Source: an uncultured Mycoplasmatota bacterium
GTDB taxonomy: Bacteria > Bacillota_I > Bacilli_A > RF39 > UBA660
Length of the DNA stretch: 64,000 bases
Assembly (NCBI GenBank): GCA_949288035.1
Contig: CASEIJ010000031.1
Span: 13,929 to 77,928 of the forward strand
Reading direction: 5' to 3'
Below the pieces are notes generated by a model, which saw nothing but the letters and a program-made list of their open reading frames with translations, was not told the origin of the DNA and did not search any database. The position numbers and the translations under genes are program-made. This document shows positions 898 to 57,363 of the stretch, in pieces (within the stretch, counting starts at the first letter, position 1; the number at the start of each line of letters is the position of its first letter).

Positions 898-1893
898 TTA
901 CTCTGTCAATTTATATTTTTTATTGGGCGATTTTTCATTATTGTCAGTAGTTTCAATTTTCTTATCTTGAAGAAATTTTCTTAAAATTCTTCTGACTGTA
1001 CTGTCAGATAGTTCTGTTTGTTCAATAATATCTTTGGCTCCAATTATAACGTTTTTCTTAATGCATTCTAATACTTTTTGTTCGTTTTCAGAAAGCAATA
1101 ACATAGATTTGTCTTTCATTTCTTTTGAATTATTCATTTCGTCTATTGTATCGTTTATCATTTTTAGCATAAACTCTATAAATTCTGTTGAGTTCCCAGC
1201 ATTATTGCAATTTTGAATAGCAGTATAATATTTTTCTTGATTTTTCTTTATCATACTTTCAATAGGTAAATAAGTAAATGCTTTTTCCCAATGTGAAAGA
1301 ATTGCAGTTTGCCATAATCTGGCTGTTCTTCCATTTCCATCGTGAAATGGGTGTATAAATACAAATTCATAATGGAATATAGAAGATAAAATTAAAGGAT
1401 TTATTTCATCTTTAACCTCATTCATCCAATGAAATAGGTTATCCATTAAACTAGGTACTAATCTATGTGGTGGGCATGTAAAAATACATATATCTCCATC
1501 ATAAACACCTTCGCCATGATTTCTAAATTTACCTGCATCTTTTTCAATTAAAAAAGTTAGAGTTCCGTGTATTTTCTTTAAATCTTCTACAGAATATGGA
1601 TTTACTTTATCAATTTGCTCATAAGCATTATAAGCATTTTTCACTTCTTGAATATCTTTTTGTTCTCCAATTACAGGTTTTCCATTAATTACATCTTCAA
1701 CTTGAAATAATGATAATTGGTTATTTTCTATTGCTAAAGATGAATGTATTGACTTTATTCTTGATTTTCTTCTCAATTCTGGGTATCTATTTAGACTTTC
1801 AAAATAATTTGCTTCTCCAATTTTTTTCATTATATCTGACACATAATTTAACATTTTGTCGGTTATTGTGTATGGTGGGTATTTTACTTCCAT
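898..1893 (-). CDS. Fic family protein (class II, with intramolecular inhibitory motif)
   Basis: Fic active-site motif HPFHDGNGRTARLW. An upstream 'SLAIEN' fits the (S/T)xxxE(G/N) inhibitory helix. Basic C-terminus is HTH-like. Confidence 0.85.
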   Translation of the reverse strand: MEVKYPPYTITDKMLNYVSDIMKKIGEANYFESLNRYPELRRKSRIKSIHSSLAIENNQLSLFQVEDVINGKPVIGEQKDIQEVKNAYNAYEQIDKVNPYSVEDLKKIHGTLTFLIEKDAGKFRNHGEGVYDGDICIFTCPPHRLVPSLMDNLFHWMNEVKDEINPLILSSIFHYEFVFIHPFHDGNGRTARLWQTAILSHWEKAFTYLPIESMIKKNQEKYYTAIQNCNNAGNSTEFIEFMLKMINDTIDEMNNSKEMKDKSMLLLSENEQKVLECIKKNVIIGAKDIIEQTELSDSTVRRILRKFLQDKKIETTDNNEKSPNKKYKLTE

Positions 1894-2252
1894 TTGAAAC
1901 CTCCAATCATATATTTATTATATCACAAACTTTTTTAATATAACACAGGCTATTATTACTTTGAAGAACATTGTGATGATAAATGAGTTACTAAAGCTTC
2001 TGATTATTTAGATGTGTTTATAAAAGATAAATTATCAAATATATAGTAGATATATATTGATAAAGGTATTGACCATGGCGTAGGTTGGTGATAATATTTA
2101 TATTGATTGGTACTTATGAAACTTTCGAAGCTCCGAGCCAAATTTATATGTATTTGATATCACATTGATATAAAAACATTTAAAAGTACGATAGACAAAG
2201 AAAGAGTTTTAAATTCTTTCTTTTTTTTGATATACTAATACTAGGTGAGAGT

Positions 2253-4445
2253 ATGAAACAAGTGATTTTGAAAATCGGGGGAATGAGTTGTAGTGCTTGT
2301 TCTAATGGTTTAGAAAAATATTTAAATAAACAAGATAAAATAGAGAGTGCAACGGTGAATTTAGTACTCGCTCAAGCTAAGATTGTATATGATGATACAC
2401 TATCTATTTCTGATATCGAACAGATGGTAAAAGATTCTGGATTTGAAAGTTTAGGAGTCTATGATCCGAAAAAAGATGACAAAGAACAGAAAATTTCTAA
2501 ATCATTTTATATCTTTTTAGTTCTAGCACTCATTCTTTTATATATTTCTATGGCTCCAATGATTGGAATTCCAACTATAACATATTTGAATATGGCTTCC
2601 TATCCGAAAGTATATGGAATTGCTTTATTATTACTTACTATTCCATTTCTATGTTATGGAAAAGATTTATTTCAAAGTGGTATTAAAAATTTTATGTATC
2701 GTACCCCAAACATGGATACATTGGTAACAATTGGCGTTTTTAGTGGTTTTTTATATAGCTGTTACAGCTTATTACAAGTGTTTTTAGGAAACATGAGTGC
2801 AGTTCATCATCTTTATTTTGAATCATCTGCTATCGTTATTTTCTTTGTCAAAATGGGACGATTATTAGATGAGAAAAGTAAAGCCAAAACAAAAGAGGCG
2901 ATTCAAGAATTAGTTCAAATTACACCGGAAAAAGCAATACTTTTAACAGAACAAGGGGAGAAAGAAGTAACGATTGATGAAGTAAAAGTAGGTGATATCT
3001 TAATTGTTAAACCAGGAATGAAATTAGCTGTTGATGGCATTGTTATAAAAGGTAAATCTCATGTCGATGAATCATTTGTGACAGGAGAATCAAAACCAGT
3101 CACAAAAGAAAAAGGAAGTTCTGTTGTGGCTGGAAGTATGAACTATGATGGATATTTAGAATATGAAGCAAAACGGATTGGGAAAGATTCGACGATATCA
3201 GAAATTGTCAACTTAGTGATCGATGCAACCAATACCAAAGCCCCCATTGCGCGCATTGCTGATACGATTAGTAGTTATTTTGTACCAACTATTATCATGA
3301 TCGCCATAGTAACACTATTTGGTTATTTACTACTTGGCTTTCCACTTTCTGAAGCCGTTATTTCTTTTGTAACTGTGTTGGTTGTCGCTTGTCCATGTGC
3401 TTTAGGCTTGGCAACGCCACTTGCGATTGTGGTTAGTATGGGCACAAGCGCCAAACAAGGAATTTTGATTAAGACGAGTGAAACATTAGAAAATGCTCAC
3501 AAAGTAGATAAGATTGTCTTTGACAAAACAGGAACATTAACTTATGGAAATTTACGTATTTCTCATATGGTTACCAATATGGATGAACAAGAACTTCTTT
3601 CCATGGTGGGAAGCTTAGAAGAAAAATCCACTCATCCGATTTGTAATGCCTTTCTTTTAGAGCTAGAACAGAAAAAGTTAAAGAAAAAAGTAGTAGAAAG
3701 CTTTCAAAATATCGCAGGAATTGGATTATATGGTGTGATTGATGGAAAAGAAATCTATGTTGGAAATCAAAAACTATTTTCTAAATTGAAAATAGAAGAG
3801 AAATATAAACAAGAAAAAGAAGCATGGACGATGGAAGGAAATAGCTTAATATATGTATTTATCAATCATGAAGTGGTTGCTTTATTTGGGGTATCAGATA
3901 TCGTACGTGAGGATGCAAAAGATACCGTTCAGACATTAAAAAACTATGGAAAAGAAGTTGTCATGTTGACTGGAGATGATCAAGTAACAGCTTCGGTGAT
4001 TGCCAAGAAGTTGGGAATTACCCATGTGATTGCAGGTGTTATGCCCAAAGAAAAAACGAAAATGATTCGCACGTGGAAAGAAAAGAACGAAAAAGTAATG
4101 ATGGTAGGAGACGGGATTAATGATGCACCATCTTTAAGTGCCGCAACAATTGGGGTTAGTATTCATAGTGGTACAGATATTGCTATGAATTCTGCAGATG
4201 TGATTTTAATGAGAGATGATTTACAAGGACTGGTAACACTTTTAAAAATCAGTAAGCAAACATATCACAATATCAAACAAAATTTATTTTGGGCATTTTT
4301 CTATAACAGTCTTATGATTCCAATTGCTATTGGTTTTCTAAAACCATTCGGTATTACCATGAATCCTATGTTAGCAGGACTTGCCATGACATTTAGTAGT
4401 TTGACTGTGATTTTAAATGCACTGCGTTTAAAACATATCAAATAG
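2253..4445 (+). CDS. copA: Copper-translocating P-type ATPase
   Basis: N-terminal HMA 'GMSCSACS', TM 'CPC', 'DKTGTLT' phosphorylation motif, 'GDGINDAP' hinge, 730 aa. Confidence 0.85.
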
Positions 4446-48467: not shown

Positions 48468-48635
48468 CTAATGTTGGTTACAACCGCCGCAGGCACGAGC
48501 ACCGATAACGATTACTAATAAAATAAATAATACTAAAATAATTGCTGCACCATATCCAGTACCGTAACCGCCACCGTATCCTCCGCCATATGGAGCACCA
48601 CAGCCATAACCTTGATATCCGCCATAGTAGTACAT
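48468..48635 (-). CDS. Tiny Gly/Tyr-rich membrane protein, YjcZ-family sporulation-type protein (55 aa)
   Basis: Translation 'MYYYGGYQGYGCGAPYGGGYGGGYGTGYGAAIILVLFILLVIVIGARACGGCNQH'. RBS 'ggaggt' 6 nt upstream. Below the 60-aa ORF-track cutoff. Confidence 0.65.
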   Translation of the reverse strand: MYYYGGYQGYGCGAPYGGGYGGGYGTGYGAAIILVLFILLVIVIGARACGGCNQH

Positions 48636-50002: not shown

Positions 50003-50377
50003 ATGACTGTTGTAGGAATGTTTGATATTTCTAAGTATACAAATAAAACGTGTTCTTCAACTGAAGTTATTTTATTTTTAGAAAGAAAGCAACATATTTT
50101 AGAACACCATCCAGAAGTTGCTAATTATCTTAATTGTATTCCTAATATATTAAAATACCCTGATTGTATATTTTGGGAGATAAATCGTGAATCCACGATT
50201 TGGTTAGTTAAGAAATTTGATAAAAATATTAAATTAACTGTAAAGCTTAATTTTTCTCAAAATAAGAATTTGAAAAATTCTATTATTCAAATGCAGATTA
50301 TGAGAGAGAGCGAAGTTGATAGAAATATTCGAAATGGTAATATTATAAAATTGTTTGATAAAAATAATCCCATATAG
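50003..50377 (+). CDS. Hypothetical 124-aa protein inside a direct-repeat-flanked insert
   Basis: ORF with RBS 'aaggggatga'. No recognisable motif. Confidence 0.45.
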   Translation: MTVVGMFDISKYTNKTCSSTEVILFLERKQHILEHHPEVANYLNCIPNILKYPDCIFWEINRESTIWLVKKFDKNIKLTVKLNFSQNKNLKNSIIQMQIMRESEVDRNIRNGNIIKLFDKNNPI

Positions 50378-50487
50378 TATACTATTAGTAGGAGAGGTGG
50401 ACAATTTCGGCACGTCCACACACCTTATGGGTCAAAAGAGATGAGGGAGAATGTGCCGCCCTCCTCCTAAAAAATATTTTTTATTTT

Positions 50488-50529
50488 GTAGCAGGACTTC
50501 CTACTACTTTTTTTGTATATAAAAAGTAG
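50488..50529 (+). repeat. 42-bp direct repeat copy 2
   Basis: Perfect copy of 49928-49969. Provides the RBS context for comEA. Confidence 0.85.
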
Positions 50530-50541
50530 AGGAGGGAAAAT

Positions 50542-51183
50542 ATGAAAAAAATATCTATTTTATTATTACTTTGTTTATTTGTTATATCTTGTTCGAAGTC
50601 TGAAGATACAATTTCTTTGCAAGAGAAAAATGTACCATCAAAAGAAGAGAAGCAAGAAGAAAAAATGATTGCTGTTGATGTGAAAGGTGCTGTTTTAAAT
50701 CCTGGTGTATATGAGTTTTCTAAGGGGACTGTATTGGATGCGATTACGAAAGCAGGAGGACTTTTAGAAAATGCAGATACCAATTATTTAAATTTAAGTA
50801 AAAAATTAAAAGATGAAATGGTAATTTTAATTTATACAAAAGAAGAAATTGCTGATTTTGAAAATGGAAATCAGTTACAATTACCAATTGAAACTTGTGT
50901 TTGTCCAGAAATAAAAAACGATGGATGTCTAAAAGAAGAAGACGTGGTTACGAACCGAAAAGAAGAAGAAACTGTCACAGTAGAGGAAGGGCCACATGTG
51001 ATATCCATCCTAACTGCTACGAAAGAAGAATGGATGTTACTTCCAGGAATTGGAGAAACAAAAGCAAATGCGATTATTGAATATCGTAATACCAATGGTT
51101 TTCAAAGTATTGAAGATTTAAAAAATGTAAAAGGAATTGGCGATAGTACCTTTGAGAAAATTAAAGAATATCTTACTATGTAG
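50542..51183 (+). CDS. comEA: Competence protein ComEA (lipoprotein, SLBB plus helix-hairpin-helix)
   Basis: Lipobox 'LFVISCS'. C-terminal HhH 'LLPGIGETKANAIIEYRNTNGFQSIEDLKNVKGIGDSTFEKI'. Confidence 0.8.
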   Translation: MKKISILLLLCLFVISCSKSEDTISLQEKNVPSKEEKQEEKMIAVDVKGAVLNPGVYEFSKGTVLDAITKAGGLLENADTNYLNLSKKLKDEMVILIYTKEEIADFENGNQLQLPIETCVCPEIKNDGCLKEEDVVTNRKEEETVTVEEGPHVISILTATKEEWMLLPGIGETKANAIIEYRNTNGFQSIEDLKNVKGIGDSTFEKIKEYLTM

Positions 51184-53182
51184 TATATTATTTACTACTT
51201 GTATTGTTGTATATACTTGTTTAAAGCAAGGGTGGAATGTTCCTAAAGAAGAAGTAAATCAAGCTCGTATTATCGATTTTGAAATAACTGGTGATACATT
51301 AAAACTAGAATTAAAACAAAATCAAAACTATATCGCATATTATCAAATTAAAAGTTTACAAGAAAAGAAATGGTTAAGTAAAAATTTAGAATATGAAATG
51401 ATTATTTCTTTTCAAGGTGAATATCAATTACCAAGTACAAATACTAATTTTTATCAATTCTCATATCGTAATTATTTAAAAAGTCAAAATATTCACTGGC
51501 AAATTCAAATCGAAAAAATTAAAGCTTTAAAGCGTAATCACTCGTTTAAATCAATTGTTAAAAACGGGATTCAAAAAAGAATTGATCATATTCATTCAAA
51601 TGATACCTATTTAAGTTTATTTTTATTAGGGAGTAAGAAAAACTATGATGATGAAATTTATATGAAGCTTGGCGTTAGTCATTTGTTTTGTATTTCTGGA
51701 ATGCATTTTTCTTTCTTTTTAACTTTTTTTCTTTGCTTTTTTAAAGATCGTAAGAAAGCACAATTATATGCGTTTCCGGTGATGTTATTTTATGCTTGGC
51801 TCATTGGTTTTTCTATCTCTGTCATTCGTGTATTAGGTTCTATTTTGTTTTCACTATGTCATGGAAAGAAGTATTTATCTCTTCATGAATTTTATATGGT
51901 ATTTTTCTGTATATTGTTGTGTCTTAATCCATATCGTATTTACGATATTGGCTTTTTATATAGTTTTGTAGTAAGTGATGCTTTAATTATAAGTGCGTGT
52001 TACTTTCAAAAGAAAAAAACATTATCTAAAATGTTCATGATGTCTTTGATTAGTTTTATTGCGAGTATTCCTATTACTTTAACAAGTCAATACGAGTTAC
52101 AATTCACAAGTATATTATGGAATCTAATTTATATTCCTTTTGTCAGTTATATATTATTTCCACTTTCTTTTTTCGTACTGATTTTTCCTATTTGTTTTCC
52201 TATCTTTTCATTTCTCATATCTATTTTAGAGTATGGAAATCAAATCGCCGAAAAAATATTACCAAGTGCTGTTATTTTTAGAAAGCCAGACATTTGTTTT
52301 TATATCTTATTTATATGTTGTTTTTATTCTAAAAAATCTCTTCGTTATAAAACGATTATGATTGTTTGTTTATTATGTATTTTAAAAGTGACAACTTATT
52401 TTTATCCAAATGAATTGGTTATGTTTGATGTTGGACAAGGAGATAGTTTTTTGATTCGAGGGAAAAAAACAATTCTTGTGGATACCGGTGGCAAGTTTAA
52501 TTATCAAAAAGAAAACTGGCAATTGAAAAAAACAAGTTCTTATGCTGAAAGAGTCATTATTCCATACTTAAAAGCAACTGGAATTATAAAAATTGATCAT
52601 TTGATTCTTACACATGGTGATTATGATCATATGGGTGAAAGTATTAATTTAGTAAATAACTTTAAAGTAGAGAAAGTAATATTCAATTGTGGGCCACATA
52701 ATGATTTAGAACAAGAATTAATTAAAGTATTACATAAAAAGAAAATACCATATTACAGTTGTATCAAAGAATTAAATATAGATGATAATAAATTATACTT
52801 TTTAAATAATAAAGATTATGGTAATGAAAATGATAATTCAAGTGTAATTTATACAGAACTCAATAAACATAAATTTCTATTTATGGGAGATGCTGGTGTA
52901 GAAGTAGAAGATGATTTAATAGAAAAATATAATTTACAAAATATAGATGTATTAAAAGTAGGACATCATGGAAGTAAAACAAGTTCAAGTGAAGAATTCA
53001 TAGGTGAGATAAATCCAAAATATTCAGTAATTAGTGTTGGAAAGAACAATAGATATGGTCATCCAAATGATAGTGTATTAGAAAATTTAGAAGATAGTAA
53101 AATTTATAGAACAGATGAAGATGGAAGTATTATGTTTAAAATTGATAATGATAAATTAAAAATTAAAACATGTGCACCATAG
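51137..53182 (+). CDS. comEC: DNA internalization competence protein ComEC/Rec2 (complete, with C-terminal metallo-beta-lactamase domain)
   Basis: Multi-TM competence domain. MBL motifs 'HLILTHGDYDHMGE' and 'VGHHGSKTSSS'. TTG start uncertain (overlaps comEA). Confidence 0.8.
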   Translation: MAIVPLRKLKNILLCSILFTTCIVVYTCLKQGWNVPKEEVNQARIIDFEITGDTLKLELKQNQNYIAYYQIKSLQEKKWLSKNLEYEMIISFQGEYQLPSTNTNFYQFSYRNYLKSQNIHWQIQIEKIKALKRNHSFKSIVKNGIQKRIDHIHSNDTYLSLFLLGSKKNYDDEIYMKLGVSHLFCISGMHFSFFLTFFLCFFKDRKKAQLYAFPVMLFYAWLIGFSISVIRVLGSILFSLCHGKKYLSLHEFYMVFFCILLCLNPYRIYDIGFLYSFVVSDALIISACYFQKKKTLSKMFMMSLISFIASIPITLTSQYELQFTSILWNLIYIPFVSYILFPLSFFVLIFPICFPIFSFLISILEYGNQIAEKILPSAVIFRKPDICFYILFICCFYSKKSLRYKTIMIVCLLCILKVTTYFYPNELVMFDVGQGDSFLIRGKKTILVDTGGKFNYQKENWQLKKTSSYAERVIIPYLKATGIIKIDHLILTHGDYDHMGESINLVNNFKVEKVIFNCGPHNDLEQELIKVLHKKKIPYYSCIKELNIDDNKLYFLNNKDYGNENDNSSVIYTELNKHKFLFMGDAGVEVEDDLIEKYNLQNIDVLKVGHHGSKTSSSEEFIGEINPKYSVISVGKNNRYGHPNDSVLENLEDSKIYRTDEDGSIMFKIDNDKLKIKTCAP

Positions 53183-53198
53183 AAAGGAGAACAAAAAA

Positions 53199-54029
53199 AT
53201 GAATGAAATAAAAGAATATACAGAAAAATTATTTGAAAATATAAAACATATAGATGAAAATGGCAATGAGTATTGGTTGGCTAGAGAATTAATGCCATTA
53301 CTTGAGTACAACAAATGGGAGAGATTTTCTAATGCAATAGAATATGCAAAAACATCTTGTATAAAAAGTGGTTATAATGTTAGTGACCATTTTCCCGAGG
53401 TTGGGAAATTGGTTCAAATAGGTTCAAAAACAAACAGAAAATTGAAAGATTATAAACTATCAAGATATGCATGTTATTTAATAGTACAAAATGGTGATTC
53501 AAGAAAAGAAGCAATAGCTTTAGGTCAAACTTATTTTGCGATTCAAACTAGAAAACAAGAGTTAAATGAAAAAGAATATAGTAAGCTTACTGAAGATGAG
53601 AAAAGATTTTATCAAAGAGATTTAACTAGAAAAGGAAATTATTCTTTGAATATTGCTGCTAGAAATGCTGGAGTAAAGAACTTCGATAAATTTCATAATT
53701 CAGGTTATAAAGGATTATATAATGGAGAAACAGCAAATGATATTGCAAGAAGAAAGAAACTTAGATATAGAGAAGATATTTTGGATAACATGGGCAGTGA
53801 TGAATTAATTGCAAATTTATTTAGAATCTCTCAAACAGAACAAAAATTAAAGAATGAAAATATAAATTTAGAAAGTAAAGCAAATGAAACTCATTTTGAA
53901 GTTGGAAAGGAAATCAGAAATACAATTAAGAAACTTGGTGGAACAATGCCGGAAGATTTGCCAACTCCAGATAAAAGTTTGAAAGAGTTGGAAAAAGAGA
54001 ACAAAACATTAAATGTAAAAAATGTATGA
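53199..54029 (+). CDS. dinD: DNA-damage-inducible protein D homolog
   Basis: Colinear similarity to E. coli DinD: 'YWLARELMPLLEYNKWERF', 'LSRYACYLIVQNGD', 'GQTYFAIQTRKQEL', 'HMGSDELIANLFRISQTEQKLK', 'THFEVGKEIRNTIKKLGGTMPEDLPTP'. Confidence 0.8.
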   Translation: MNEIKEYTEKLFENIKHIDENGNEYWLARELMPLLEYNKWERFSNAIEYAKTSCIKSGYNVSDHFPEVGKLVQIGSKTNRKLKDYKLSRYACYLIVQNGDSRKEAIALGQTYFAIQTRKQELNEKEYSKLTEDEKRFYQRDLTRKGNYSLNIAARNAGVKNFDKFHNSGYKGLYNGETANDIARRKKLRYREDILDNMGSDELIANLFRISQTEQKLKNENINLESKANETHFEVGKEIRNTIKKLGGTMPEDLPTPDKSLKELEKENKTLNVKNV

Positions 54030-54058
54030 TATAATGTATATATAGGATGTGATAAATT

Positions 54059-54631
54059 ATGTTAATAGTTGAAGTTGGGTTTAAATTAGATAAGACTTTA
54101 GAATACTATGATAAAATTTTAAAAATGCATGGATTAGAAAATGATTTTAATTGTGAAACACATGATATATATTATACAAAAGATAATTTAAATGAATTAA
54201 CAGAAAATGAAATGAAACAAAAGTGTATTCGCTTAAGAAATGTAAATTTTAAAGAAGGATATAAAGTAGAAAATAAATTGTTAGATTCATTGAATATTGA
54301 TTTTGTTAATGAAAATGAACTTCTTGATTTTGAAAACAAATTAAAAGAAAATGGATATTTAAAAGTTTTCGATACTAAAAAGAAAGATCATCATTATTAC
54401 AAAGAAGGAATGAACACTAAAGTACAATTACAGGAAATTGACGATATAGGGTTACTTGTATATTTAGATAATTCAAACTATTATGAATTACCTTTAGAGG
54501 AACAAAGAAATAAATTAATTGATGAATTAAATAGTTATGGATTTGATTTTAAATATACGGATTTAGGATTAGATAAACTTAGGACATTATATTATCAAGA
54601 AAAAAAATATAGTAAAAATCAAAATGGTTAA
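54059..54631 (+). CDS. Hypothetical 190-aa protein co-located with dinD
   Basis: ORF 30 bp after dinD. No confident motif; faint resemblance to CYTH/triphosphate-tunnel fold elements ('HDIYYT', 'IRLRN'). Confidence 0.45.
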   Translation: MLIVEVGFKLDKTLEYYDKILKMHGLENDFNCETHDIYYTKDNLNELTENEMKQKCIRLRNVNFKEGYKVENKLLDSLNIDFVNENELLDFENKLKENGYLKVFDTKKKDHHYYKEGMNTKVQLQEIDDIGLLVYLDNSNYYELPLEEQRNKLIDELNSYGFDFKYTDLGLDKLRTLYYQEKKYSKNQNG

Positions 54632-54705
54632 AGCAGAACTACATAAATGTAGTTTTTTCTTTGGAAATAAAGTGTTTTACTCGACTTACTTTTTGACAAT
54701 CAGTA

Positions 54706-55275
54706 CATGGCGATTATGATCATATGGGGGAGAGTATTTCATTTGTAGAACATTTTCCAGTTAAAAATGTTATATTGAATCATGATACTTATAATGATTT
54801 AGAACAAGAATTAATTTTTCTTTTAAAAGAGAAAGGGATTAATTATTTGCAGAATGTAACATCCATTTCTGCAGCAGATTTACAATTACAATTCTTAAAT
54901 CATACAATGTATGATAATGAAAATGATAATTCAAATGTGATATATTTTGGGTTTGGTAAGTTAAACACTTTACTTATGGGAGATGTTAGTAACAAAGTAG
55001 AGACAGATTTATTAGAACAATATCAATTTTCTCATATTGATATCTTAAAAGTAGGACATCATGGTAGTAAAACTAGTACATCAGAGCAATTGATTGAAGC
55101 GATTACTCCACAATATGCATTTATCTCGGTTGGGAAAAATAATCGTTATGGACATCCTAGTAAACAAGTTTTAAATCATTTGAGACAATCCAAAGTTTAT
55201 AGAACAGATGAACATGGAAGTGTTGTTATAAGAAATGTTTATGACCATTATGTGATGAAAACTTGTATCTATTAG
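54706..55275 (+). pseudogene. Relic duplicate of comEC 3' end (metallo-beta-lactamase domain fragment, no start)
   Basis: Encodes 'HGDYDHMGESISFVEHF...VGHHGSKTSTSEQ...KNNRYGHPSKQVL...KTCIY', about 55% identical to residues from 'HGDYDHMGE' to the end of the intact ComEC. In-frame stop immediately upstream; no N-terminal part. Confidence 0.75.
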
Positions 55276-55432
55276 AAAGTAATTTATTACAAGAATATTT
55301 TATGGCAAACTGTATATATTAAAAATAGGAAATGTAACATAGATTGCATTTTAGAATAAAATAAAGCAGATATGTATTTATAGGATATGCTTTCCTGATG
55401 CGCGCTAATTGCATTTAGCGTTTATATAGATA

Positions 55433-55458
55433 GACTGTGAGTAATCACAGTCTTTTTA
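55433..55458 (+). terminator. Rho-independent terminator
   Basis: 'gactgtgagtaatcacagtc' hairpin plus 'ttttt'. Confidence 0.6.
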
Positions 55459-55608
55459 GTAAGAGTGAAGTTATGTACGACAAAAAGATTGAAATTCTTT
55501 CAGAAAATGGTACAATAGTACTGTTTTTTAAAAAAAATGAAAAAATTTGTAAGAAAAAAAGGAATTTGCAAAGTTTTGCAGTATATTAATTAATGAGGGG
55601 GTGTTCTA

Positions 55609-57363
55609 GTGATTGATCAAGAAGAATTACAACAGTTACGAGAGCAAGTGGACATTGTCGATGTAATCTCTAGTTATATCCCATTAACACAAAAAGGAAG
55701 AAATTTCTTTGGGGTGTGTCCTTTTCACGATGATAATCATCCATCGATGAGTGTTTCTAGGGAGAAACAAATTTATACGTGTTTTGCCTGTGGAGCATCT
55801 GGCAATGTATTTAAATTTATTATGGATTATGAACACGTATCTTTTAAAGAAGCGGTTCATAAAGTTGCTATGATAGCTGGAGTAGAGATGAATTTACACT
55901 TGCCAACACATCAGATTTCTTCTAGATATCAAAACTTATATGATTGTTATTCTTTTGCCAGTAAGTTATATCAGAATAATTTACATACGAAATTAGGACA
56001 AGGTGCTTTGGCATATTTAAAGAATCGACAAATTGACGATACTTGTATAAAAGAGTTTGGTATTGGTTATTCTTTAAAGGATGGGCATACATTGACAGAT
56101 TTATTGTTAAAGAAAAATTATGAGAAAAATGTACTGATAAGAAGTGGACTTGTGGTGGAAAATAGTTATGGGTTATCTGATATTTATATAGATCGTGTGA
56201 TGTTTCCACTATGGGATTTAGAAGGACGTGTTGTTGGTTTTTCAGGACGTTTATATAACGATGAAAAACAATTTAAGTATATCAATAGTAAAGAGTCAGA
56301 AATCTTTAAAAAAGGGGAACTCTTATATAATTATCACCGCGCGAAAGAAGAAGCAAGAAAGAAAAAACAAATTATTTTAATGGAAGGTTTTATGGATGTG
56401 ATTCGTGCTTATACGGTTGGTATCAAACATGTTGTTGCAACCATGGGAACCGCAGTGACAAAAGAGCAGGCGAGTCACTTAAAAAGATTATCCAATGAAA
56501 TTATTATTTGTTTTGATGGGGATCAAGCAGGAGCCAAAGGAACAGCGAGTTGTATTGAAGAATTACTAAAACTTGGTGTTACACCGAAAGTGGTCCGCTT
56601 AGAAAACGATTTAGACCCAGATGAATATATCCGTAAATATGGTGCTGAGGCTTTTCAAAAAAAGCTGGACAATCCTATGAGTACGATGGATTTTAAATTA
56701 GCATATTATAAAAAGAATAAAGACTTAAGTGATAGCGCTGATTTAACGCATTATGTGAAAGAAGTCATTCAAGAACTTTCAAAAATACCAGATGATATTA
56801 TGCGTGAAGTAACATTAAAAAAAGTTCATGATGAAAGTGGATTAGATATCTCTTTTTTGAAAGAACAATTGGACAAGTTCCAAACGGAAACCGAAAAGAA
56901 AATGATTGTCCCACCTAGAGTTGTGAAAGAGAAAAAACGTGAGACAAAGTACGAAAAAGCCGAAAAAGGATTGCTTTATTATATGTTAAGAAGTGAACAA
57001 GCAATTCAGGTATATGAAGAAAAAGTGACATTTATGCCAACCAAAGCTTATCGTAATTTAGCACGTGAAATTCGTCTGTTTTATCGTGAATATGGTAAAA
57101 TAGAACTCGCTGATTTTATGACTTATGTCAGTGATAATGAAGTGATGCAAGAAGCACTTTCAGACATTGTAGCACTTAATTTAAAAGAAGAAGCAAGTCT
57201 TGAAGAATTAAATGATTATGCGAGAGTGATTCGTGAATATACAATTAAAGAAGAAATTAAAAGATTACAAAAAGAAATGGAAGGAGCTAGTCTAGAAGAA
57301 AAAACAAAGCTGGCTACTCGTATTGTTGAATTAAAGTTAGGGGATAGAAAATATGATAAATGA
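55609..57363 (+). CDS. dnaG: DNA primase
   Basis: GTG start with RBS 'gagggggtg'. Zinc ribbon '[13 protein letters not shown]...CFACG'. TOPRIM 'ILMEGFMDV...CFDGDQAG'. Confidence 0.9.

Follow-up and report, generated by a model that had tools for sequence, protein, structure and literature searches.

A stackable, integrase-less cassette in the 3' part of comEC of uncultured gut Bacilli and its probable entry by site-specific recombination

Mobile elements knock out competence genes, and this is thought to guard them against curing by transformation. Serine-recombinase elements integrate within genes and disrupt them, according to a review (PMC5704250). Tandem accretion of cis-mobilizable elements (CIMEs) at attachment (att) sites has also been described, for example in the Streptococcus thermophilus islands related to ICESt1 and ICESt3, which occupy the 3' end of fda (PMC5704250). 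Here we describe a stretch of 64,000 nt from an uncultured Mycoplasmatota bacterium (assembly GCA_949288035.1, contig CASEIJ010000031.1, positions 13,929 to 77,928; hereafter the window), in which the DNA-uptake gene comEC contains a 2,093-bp cassette that lacks an integrase. We consider it probable, at about 70%, that comEC received this cassette by site-specific recombination at the CA of the His codon of its HGDYDH motif. Loci and proteins compared with the window are designated by L and P numbers, respectively.

The comEC chimera and the limits of the cassette

The metallo-beta-lactamase (MBL) domain occupies residues 431-635 of the window's ComEC (Pfam), and most of this domain belongs to a 189-residue C-terminal tail that occurs twice. 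The intact tail begins at the H of HGDYDHMGE, at position 52613. An earlier note on this DNA was right about the tail itself and placed its start one nucleotide too far to the right, at 52614. The second copy, hereafter the relic, has the same orientation and the extent proposed in the earlier note (54706-55275); an in-frame TGA precedes it at 54694-54696, and no comEC-like sequence was found directly upstream of it. The two tail proteins are identical at 102 of 187 positions without a gap (55%, E = 2e-70), which bears out both the identity of about 55% noticed earlier and the homology of the downstream fragment to the comEC tail, on which the earlier interpretation had been staked. The nucleotide alignment suggested in the earlier note shows a sharp onset of homology at ACATGG.

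We used the full ComEC as a query and scored its matches separately on the N-terminal part (N-part), the intact tail and the relic. One protein (P0002) is 98% identical to the N-part and 89% identical to the relic, with 53% identity to the intact tail. Two others (P0035 and P0036) are 100% identical to the intact tail and only 36% identical to the N-part. Dozens of further proteins combine tails of 78-88% identity with N-parts of 33-40% identity, and there are hosts with N-parts of about 30-39% identity that carry the intact tail at 99-100% identity. On the contig encoding P0002 (L002), dnaG lies directly 3' of comEC, and there is no insert. This is the kind of insert-free relative with which the earlier note had proposed a comparison. 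Its alignment with the window runs to about 52612 and restarts at 54706, leaving a clean gap of 2,093 bp. An empty site exists, therefore, within the window's own species, and the split identities together with this empty site indicate that the distal tail is native and the proximal tail foreign. From the His codon of HGDYDH (52613) onward, comEC is cassette-supplied; the gene is a chimera. The foreign proximal tail, the native relic and the empty L002 agree with the earlier proposal that an element entered the 3' part of comEC and brought a replacement end.

The limits of the cassette are exact. The left junction at 52613 joins the host left arm to the cassette tail, and where the same cassette is found in unrelated hosts, identity begins at CATGG. 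Single-nucleotide polymorphisms (SNPs) at positions 6, 24 and 27 of the core are of the cassette type at the left junction and of the native type at the right junction, which confines the crossover to CATGG. On the right, all cassette copies compared break at the CA of the next core. Left breakpoints differ: they lie at the CA, about 36 nt beyond it in L006 and L098 or, in L101 and L106, at the tail end.

The cassette has been transferred recently between distant hosts. In L001, the segment from ACACATGG to ...GACAATCAG differs from window positions 52611-54703 by one SNP and one indel in an A-run, the flanks being unrelated; the ComEC N-part of that host is about 32-39% identical to the window's, depending on the alignment. 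The window's cassette is also present in L005, L006, L098 and L101-L106; in L101 and L106, the segment comprising dinD, orfX and the end arm stands behind another tail. The exact DinD protein of the cassette is indexed in 377 blocks of the collection; among the matches listed, comEC is the immediate upstream gene in 10 of 10, and these represent at least four host backgrounds. Within the window's species, the full state is found in the window, L103 and L102, the empty state in L002, and a decayed state in L003, L097, L099, L100 and L105, in which only 68-75 codons of orfX remain and the relic has been lost.

The relic is a mosaic between conspecific strains. Around window positions 54740-54900, the relic of L103 is 75-86% identical in one patch and 100% identical elsewhere, and that of L102 shows the opposite pattern. 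This mosaicism suggests ongoing recombination among tail copies.

Cassette ends, arrays and cargo

The cassette ends in a 26-nt motif, CTCGACTTACTTTTTGACAATCAGTA, directly before the relic. We found that internal tails are always preceded by one of two 26-nt motifs, T1 (TTCGACTTACTTTTTGACAATCACCA followed by CATGG) and T2 (TTCGTATGCATAAACGTATGTCACCA followed by CATGG); the motif of the window is of type T1. Array loci from the genome scan described below contain 62 of these putative phage-type (P-type) left half-sites before CATGG, 40 of T1 and 22 of T2, and no right arm was found in these loci. A metagenome scan for T1 yielded 101 stretches. In the 80 loci examined, 81 T1 sites have enough sequence after them; 75 of these sites are followed by the canonical tail core and three by a diverged tail. 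A metagenome scan for the right-end sequence of the T1 phage had no match.

A scan of viral contigs for T1 matched two contigs. The phage attP of L085 and L089 reads TTCGACTTACT-N15-CA-N15-AGTAAGTCGAA, with perfect 11-bp inverted repeats, each 15 nt from the CA. It has a mapped length of 54 bp, is symmetric, and lies just 3' of a gene for a 473-aa large serine recombinase (LSR) with Resolvase, Recombinase and Zn_ribbon_recom domains. The attPs of four further recombinase phages (65-74% identical) are symmetric about the same CCA-CA-TGG centre and have their own outer repeats. L084 holds a prophage of the siphovirus type at its right end, where genes for tail, holin, M23 lysin, methylase and GmrSD proteins are followed by a terminal T1 and CATGG; in L021, a phage end of the L084 type is joined to a comEC tail. 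L088 represents an attL, with a comEC-type left arm and a phage right arm. No T2 arm was found in the viral contigs; the only related arm is that of L090, which is similar to T2.

In the window motif, 15 nt separate the outer 11-mer from the central CA, and the motif agrees with the phage arm of L085 and L089 at 23 of 26 positions. This match and the correct spacing to the CA identify it as a putative P-type left half-site in register, and the junction before the relic would be an attR, because a phage-type left half-site adjoins the displaced native tail. There is thus a strong case that the cassette-end motif is half of a phage LSR attP. Binding and recombination of these sites by the recombinase are predicted from the sequences. 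The recombinase itself is absent from the window: a tblastn search with the phage recombinase was empty over the 64 kb, as the earlier note's statement that no integrase is left had implied, and no recombinase domain was detected among the window open reading frames (ORFs) scanned with Pfam, those of the cassette included. A different serine recombinase, partial at the contig end and 30% identical to the T1 phage LSR, is found in L054 (109-4047). Together with two XRE-type regulators, it precedes by 2.4 kb a comEC tail that has a further, different sequence at its left junction. The same CA seems to be used by at least one more recombinase lineage.

The cassette belongs to a family. A tail scan with one genome per species gave 579 stretches with the peptide pattern, of which 500 encode a tail relative. 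The best 79 tail loci have tails 77-100% identical. All of them derive from metagenome-assembled genomes of uncultured gut Bacilli, 'Tenericutes' or Erysipelotrichaceae, and their ComEC N-parts are 26-47% identical to the window's, save in its own species (L003, 95%). Tandem tails (at least two) are present in 38 of the 62 loci with enough downstream DNA, and some of these loci have as many as six tail copies or fragments. Cassette length, measured for 54 cassettes, has a median of 2,090 nt (range 1,048-4,262), and these cassettes follow a common plan: a tail, a first gene, a variable second gene, a hairpin and a conserved end motif. The first gene encodes DinD in 24 cassettes, a YhcG/DUF1016 PD-(D/E)XK nuclease in 20 and neither in 10. 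Second genes, which pair freely with DinD or YhcG, include orfX and genes for CutA-like, WDGH, FGase, NUDIX, peptidase S51, HD and DUF488-like proteins. Among the defence candidates in PADLOC, DinD matches PDC-S13 and YhcG matches PDC-S02, and no integrase or transposase family was found among the cluster representatives of the scanned cargo. Tail identity stays at about 80% at any N-part identity between 20 and 60%, which is partly a selection effect of the search; pairs with tails of 99-100% and N-parts of 34-39% identity go beyond that effect. The hosts retain comEA, comEC and competence-pilus-type genes. Going beyond the earlier note, the 2.09-kb unit is itself mobile, carries the putative half of a phage LSR attP and is one member of a stackable family.

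Both genes that the earlier note saw between the tails are present (Table 1). With the NCBIfam model NF008573 (DNA damage-inducible protein D), the cassette DinD reaches 356 bits over residues 3-272, where the curated cut-off is 242, so by sequence it ranks as a full-length family member. Bro-N is its sole Pfam match, and the protein also matches PHROG 8036. The dinD start codon lies 16 nt past the comEC stop codon, close to comEC as noted earlier (the spacer had been counted as 17 bp), and leaves no room for an operator of its own. Since no terminator lies between comEC and dinD, read-through from comEA-comEC into dinD is likely, and with this spacer co-transcription of comEC and dinD is plausible. 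That DinD modulates RecA during competence, also put forward earlier, is speculation. DinD homologs with 54-57% identity are accessory genes in the Streptococcus satellite phages 'Javan' (records H31-H44), in many records 1.3-2.2 kb from the end; in the Javan416 record the homolog is at 3.6-4.4 kb.

Table 1. Features of the comEC locus (window positions)
Feature	Position	Strand	Basis or detail
comEA, head of the DNA-uptake operon	50542..51183	+	SLBB and HHH_3/HHH by Pfam
comEC, whole chimeric gene	51137..53182	+	
comEC, host-derived part (DUF4131, Competence channel domain, first ~60 residues of the MBL domain)	51137..52612	+	Pfam
comEC replacement tail, cassette-borne, 189 aa, most of the MBL nuclease domain	52613..53182	+	in frame
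Mobile cassette, 2,093 bp	52613..54705	+	gap versus L002; near-identity with L001
Left crossover dinucleotide CA, first two bases of the HGDYDH His codon; attB-like junction	52613..52614	+	
dinD-like gene, 276 aa	53199..54029	+	ribosome-binding site AAAGGAG at 53183-53189
Putative extended -10 element TGATATAAT before orfX	54027..54035	+	sequence reading
orfX, 190 aa, variable second gene, predicted CYTH/triphosphate-tunnel-metalloenzyme-like	54059..54631	+	
Terminator-like hairpin and U-run at the cassette 3' end	54635..54661	+	fold -9.9 kcal/mol, z = -2.97
Cassette-end motif CTCGACTTACTTTTTGACAATCAGTA, putative P-type left half-site, type T1	54680..54705	+	phage attP arm match
Promoter-like TTGACA-N16-TATGAT spanning the attR junction, towards the relic	54693..54720	+	11/12 matches
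Right crossover dinucleotide CA; putative attR-type junction (P-left arm and native tail)	54706..54707	+	
Native comEC tail, displaced (relic)	54706..55275	+	frame still open
Native comEC terminator	55432..55453	+	

The second gene, orfX, has no family match in Pfam, NCBIfam, PHROG or PADLOC, and none of its 683 homologs has a Pfam domain. Its AlphaFold2 model (pLDDT 93.8) retrieved 7nsf from the PDB with Foldseek (E 2.6e-8, TM 0.56), together with class IV adenylyl cyclases. The protein is therefore predicted to be a beta-barrel of the CYTH/triphosphate tunnel metalloenzyme (TTM) type. Its N-terminus reads VEVGFK (the TTM motif is ExExK), and E5, R58, R60, K108 and D110 are invariant. The TGATATAAT block before orfX is also found before orfX homologs in L107 and L109 and before the next gene in L112. 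An origin of the dinD-orfX pair by LSR deletion from a dinD-LSR-orfX ancestor was considered and rejected, since the shared block comprises only about 20 nt around TGATATAAT, which is too little.

Other cassettes have an equivalent hairpin ahead of the end motif. The promoter-like site at the attR junction is the top such site within 50300-55700; its -35 hexamer comes from the phage-type arm and its -10 hexamer from the comEC core, 16 nt apart. Since the T1 arm gives TTGACA and the core gives TATGAT, every T1 attR junction should create a near-consensus promoter, which would drive the relic and, in longer arrays, the next cassette; the T2 arm forms no such junction promoter. The terminator that the earlier note had placed at 55433 is present and starts one nucleotide before that position.

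Outside the cassette, a gene for a 124-aa PBECR3 protein (a phage-Barnase-EndoU-ColicinE5/D-RelE-like nuclease) lies at 50003-50377 between an FtsW/RodA gene and comEA; it is not cassette-borne, since the empty-site strain L002 has it too. A 55-aa ORF on the minus strand (48468-48635) encodes Gly/Tyr repeats and then a hydrophobic segment (MYYYGGYQGYGCGAPYGGGYGGGYGTGYG...), and is kept as a called gene in L002 and L097-L105.

Another array system, a mirror image of the one at comEC, precedes an rbgA/ylqF-like GTPase gene in L107-L120 (for example, L112 4860-8220 and L116 5000-10100). These arrays contain small co-oriented genes for DinD-like, RhuM, GNAT, peptidase S51, NUDIX and orfX-like proteins, as well as a resident 406-aa serine recombinase (P0245 and P0339) that shares only 23% identity with the comEC-phage LSR. 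Within the arrays, the beginning of the GTPase gene recurs as relic 5' starts (ATGAGTAATGAAGAAAAAAGT...TTAACTGG), so that the cassettes there appear to replace the 5' end of the gene. In L107-L111, a decayed recombinase of the 406-aa type is found between the DinD-like and orfX-like genes.

Possible routes of movement and alternative explanations

The cassette tail replaces the last 189 codons of comEC, leaving the gene intact and restoring an attB-like site at the head, and the native tail has been shifted downstream to become the relic. The phage LSR would presumably act on cassettes in trans, which is the most economical reading, and two routes that keep to accepted LSR reactions can be envisaged. 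By the first, a phage would integrate at the attB-like array head and excise through the distal attR, taking the cassette along; a new host would be entered by attP x attB recombination, and the phage would then depart through its own attR. By the second, a cassette circle with an attR-type site would recombine with the attL of an element that splits comEC, thereby repairing the gene. Homologous recombination between tails may in addition reshuffle tails and cargo. In L149, L187 and L189, the CA links a cassette T1 arm to a P-right arm that no integrase adjoins; the right arm is followed by a tail-less mini-cassette of one or two genes and then by a junction of P-left arm and tail. We infer that these junctions are the product expected of the second route. 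Because it is bounded by a right arm and a left arm, a mini-cassette circle would carry a full attP without an integrase. The mini-cassettes (L149 5592-7480, L187 1365-2010 and L189 677-1500) encode proteins of these kinds: an esterase-like protein, an XRE regulator with a membrane protein, and a histidine-phosphatase-like protein.

Several observations weigh against site-specific entry driven by a phage LSR. Under the rules known for LSR sites, attB x attR excision and the integration of an attR-type circle into attB are both non-canonical, so that a route would need a prophage attL or a co-excision step. Three of the 26 positions in the window half-site deviate from the phage arm, and the conserved CCA beside the centre is affected. 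No recombinase was found in the array loci, apart from the unrelated partial LSR in L054. The viral-contig scan gave no confirmed match to the tail and no cassette-bearing phage genome, cassette cargo and phage loci have nothing in common by tblastn, and the cassette had no match by megablast in 50,697 phage records. The variable left breakpoints imply later homologous exchange between tails, so homologous recombination contributes too. Finally, the bias towards DinD or YhcG (44 of 54 first genes) is not explained by purely passive cargo. A circle junction was not found among the loci examined.

The tail-like match in the Coprococcus phage NatCom_24345 lies inside a full 533-aa protein and is not an attachment-site tail, and a comEC-tail-like match in the unannotated phage record MT835845 was likewise set aside. 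A tyrosine-recombinase or Xer-type site, attC-like hairpins and a transposase target-site duplication were abandoned given the symmetric 54-bp LSR attP.

Among the alternatives, the one that survives best is that the cassette is the remnant of a larger self-mobile prophage or integrative and mobilizable element (IME) with an integrase, the interior of which was lost, and that the small unit never moved as such. This is the classical route to integrase-less, att-flanked elements such as CIMEs (PMC5704250), decay is evident in the conspecific loci with a shortened orfX and a deleted relic, and DinD homologs are located near the ends of streptococcal satellite phages. However, copies of the 2,093-bp unit from at least four host backgrounds have both end points in common and differ by one or two changes, and independent decay would not result in identical limits. 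The 54 cassettes are, moreover, tightly sized around 2.09 kb and follow one plan, and no tail-carrying element with an integrase was found in the scanned loci and viral contigs. We therefore regard a remnant as unlikely.

Spread by natural transformation and RecA-dependent homologous recombination alone, with the comEC core and tails as arms, would fit the variable left breakpoints, the mosaic relic, the tails that flank each cargo segment and the competence genes kept by the hosts. It would also fit L101 and L106, in which the tail is 73-74% identical, yet dinD, orfX and the arm are 100% identical. The right breakpoint, however, is exactly the CA throughout, with host-specific sequence straight after it, and there is no usable homology between host flanks. 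The left crossover of the window, L001 and L005 falls within the 5-7 nt of CATGG and not in the adjacent 17-nt identical run. Nor would homology alone account for a 26-nt non-coding end motif whose two types are conserved even where the cargo is unrelated, and which equals an arm of a phage attP at the correct spacing. Transformation as the sole agent is thus improbable.

We give similarly little credence to the idea that the first gene has a mobility or homing function, in which DinD or YhcG would cut or mark a naive comEC or act as a directionality factor. The preference for these two genes in first position while the second gene is free to vary speaks for this idea, as do the DinD-like genes that adjoin the 406-aa serine recombinase in the second array system, in either order, and the Bro-N domain, which is a DNA-binding domain (Pfam). 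On the other hand, neither gene is found in 10 of the 54 tail cassettes or in the mini-cassettes of L149, L187 and L189, no recombinase or transposase domain was detected in either protein, and both are also PADLOC defence candidates. Homing also fails to explain transfer between hosts without common flanks. The last alternative supposes that the comEC 3' end was duplicated in tandem and diverged in situ, or that the assembly is at fault. It could produce two homologous co-oriented tails 2.1 kb apart, but it is refuted by the conspecific empty site and because unrelated hosts have tails identical to the proximal one, and the arrangement recurs in the circular HiFi genome L003 (OZ006994.1) and in hundreds of independent assemblies.

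Site-specific entry of the cassette at the CA may be part of a larger system, which we propose tentatively and rate at slightly under even odds. In uncultured gut Bacilli, phage integrases would then power a cassette system built around comEC: temperate phages and tail-less mini-elements would split the gene at its catalytic His codon, tail cassettes would restore it with the same serine integrase acting in trans, and stacks would grow over repeated rounds. Each restoring cassette would deposit defence-type genes and regenerate the attachment site. Such a system would be a serine-recombinase analogue of the integron, with the arrays at the rbgA/ylqF-like gene as a second instance.

Significance and relation to known systems

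Since phages split comEC and cassettes preserve it at the same site, the locus may record both sides of a phage-competence conflict. If the integron-analogue proposal is true, transformation and prophages are in a conflict of which these arrays would keep a physical record. The cassettes would further suggest that serine-integrase sites can support an integron-like accumulation of genes, many of them defence candidates, without a resident integrase. Tail relatives in at least 500 stretches, with one genome per species, point to a wide spread. The chimeric ComEC suggests that the last 189 residues, which belong to the nuclease domain, are exchangeable between very distant proteins. The phage integrases, with a mapped 54-bp attP and a natural attB, may also be candidates for genome engineering in this uncultured group.

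CIMEs are the closest described elements. Like them, the comEC cassettes are integrase-less, bounded by att-type sites at both ends and stacked at one site, and the target gene is kept by the supplied end; in both cases mobilization is presumed to depend on an integrase-bearing element of the same specificity, for which the phage end joined to a tail in L021 and the arm-to-arm junctions of L149, L187 and L189 are indirect evidence. Known CIMEs are decayed integrative and conjugative elements (ICEs) or IMEs with tyrosine integrases, whereas the comEC cassettes are uniform units of 1-4 kb with a shared gene plan; no parent element of the cassettes was found in our scans. Unlike CIMEs, the cassettes substitute 570 coding nucleotides within an enzyme domain and appear to keep only the P-type half-site of a phage serine integrase.

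LSR prophages that split genes include the phi1207.3/phi10394.4-type phages in streptococcal comEC, the Listeria comK phage and SPbeta in spsM. The streptococcal comEC phages, of which the phi1207.3 type has two serine recombinases, share the enzyme class, the gene and the motif with the cassette site; the annotated attB of phi29961 has its 3' end, CCGATAC, in the HTDTDH codons, a few bases from the cassette crossover. The gut phages L085 and L088 split comEC as the streptococcal phages do, here at the CA. Gene-splitting phages disrupt their target, which is restored only by excision, whereas the recombinase-less cassette leaves comEC whole.

The comEC stacks resemble integrons in that small, promoter-poor cassettes are co-oriented, with the newest at the head by the expressed gene, carry defence-type cargo and each end in a recombination site. 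In contrast to integrons, the stacks have no adjacent IntI tyrosine recombinase and no attC hairpins, and their ends are putative linear serine-integrase half-sites. Each comEC cassette, unlike an integron cassette, carries a gene end, and T1 junctions form a promoter-like site. The arrays thus fall outside the definition of an integron (IntI, attI, Pc and attC).

Tycheposons and the cargo-only satellites of Prochlorococcus form arrays of cargo between partial target copies at tRNA genes, some of them recombinase-less. Tycheposons are larger, target tRNA genes and use tyrosine recombinases, whereas the comEC cassettes occupy a protein-coding catalytic motif and bear putative serine-integrase sites. 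Compared with DinD of Escherichia coli, the cassette dinD is not a chromosomal SOS gene but the first gene of a mobile cassette. We found no description of such cassettes in the searched literature on comEC, serine recombinases, cassettes and prophages. What is new here is a class of uniform 2-kb integrase-less cassettes that replace a gene end at a serine-recombinase-type site, retain a P-type half-site only and stack in many species.

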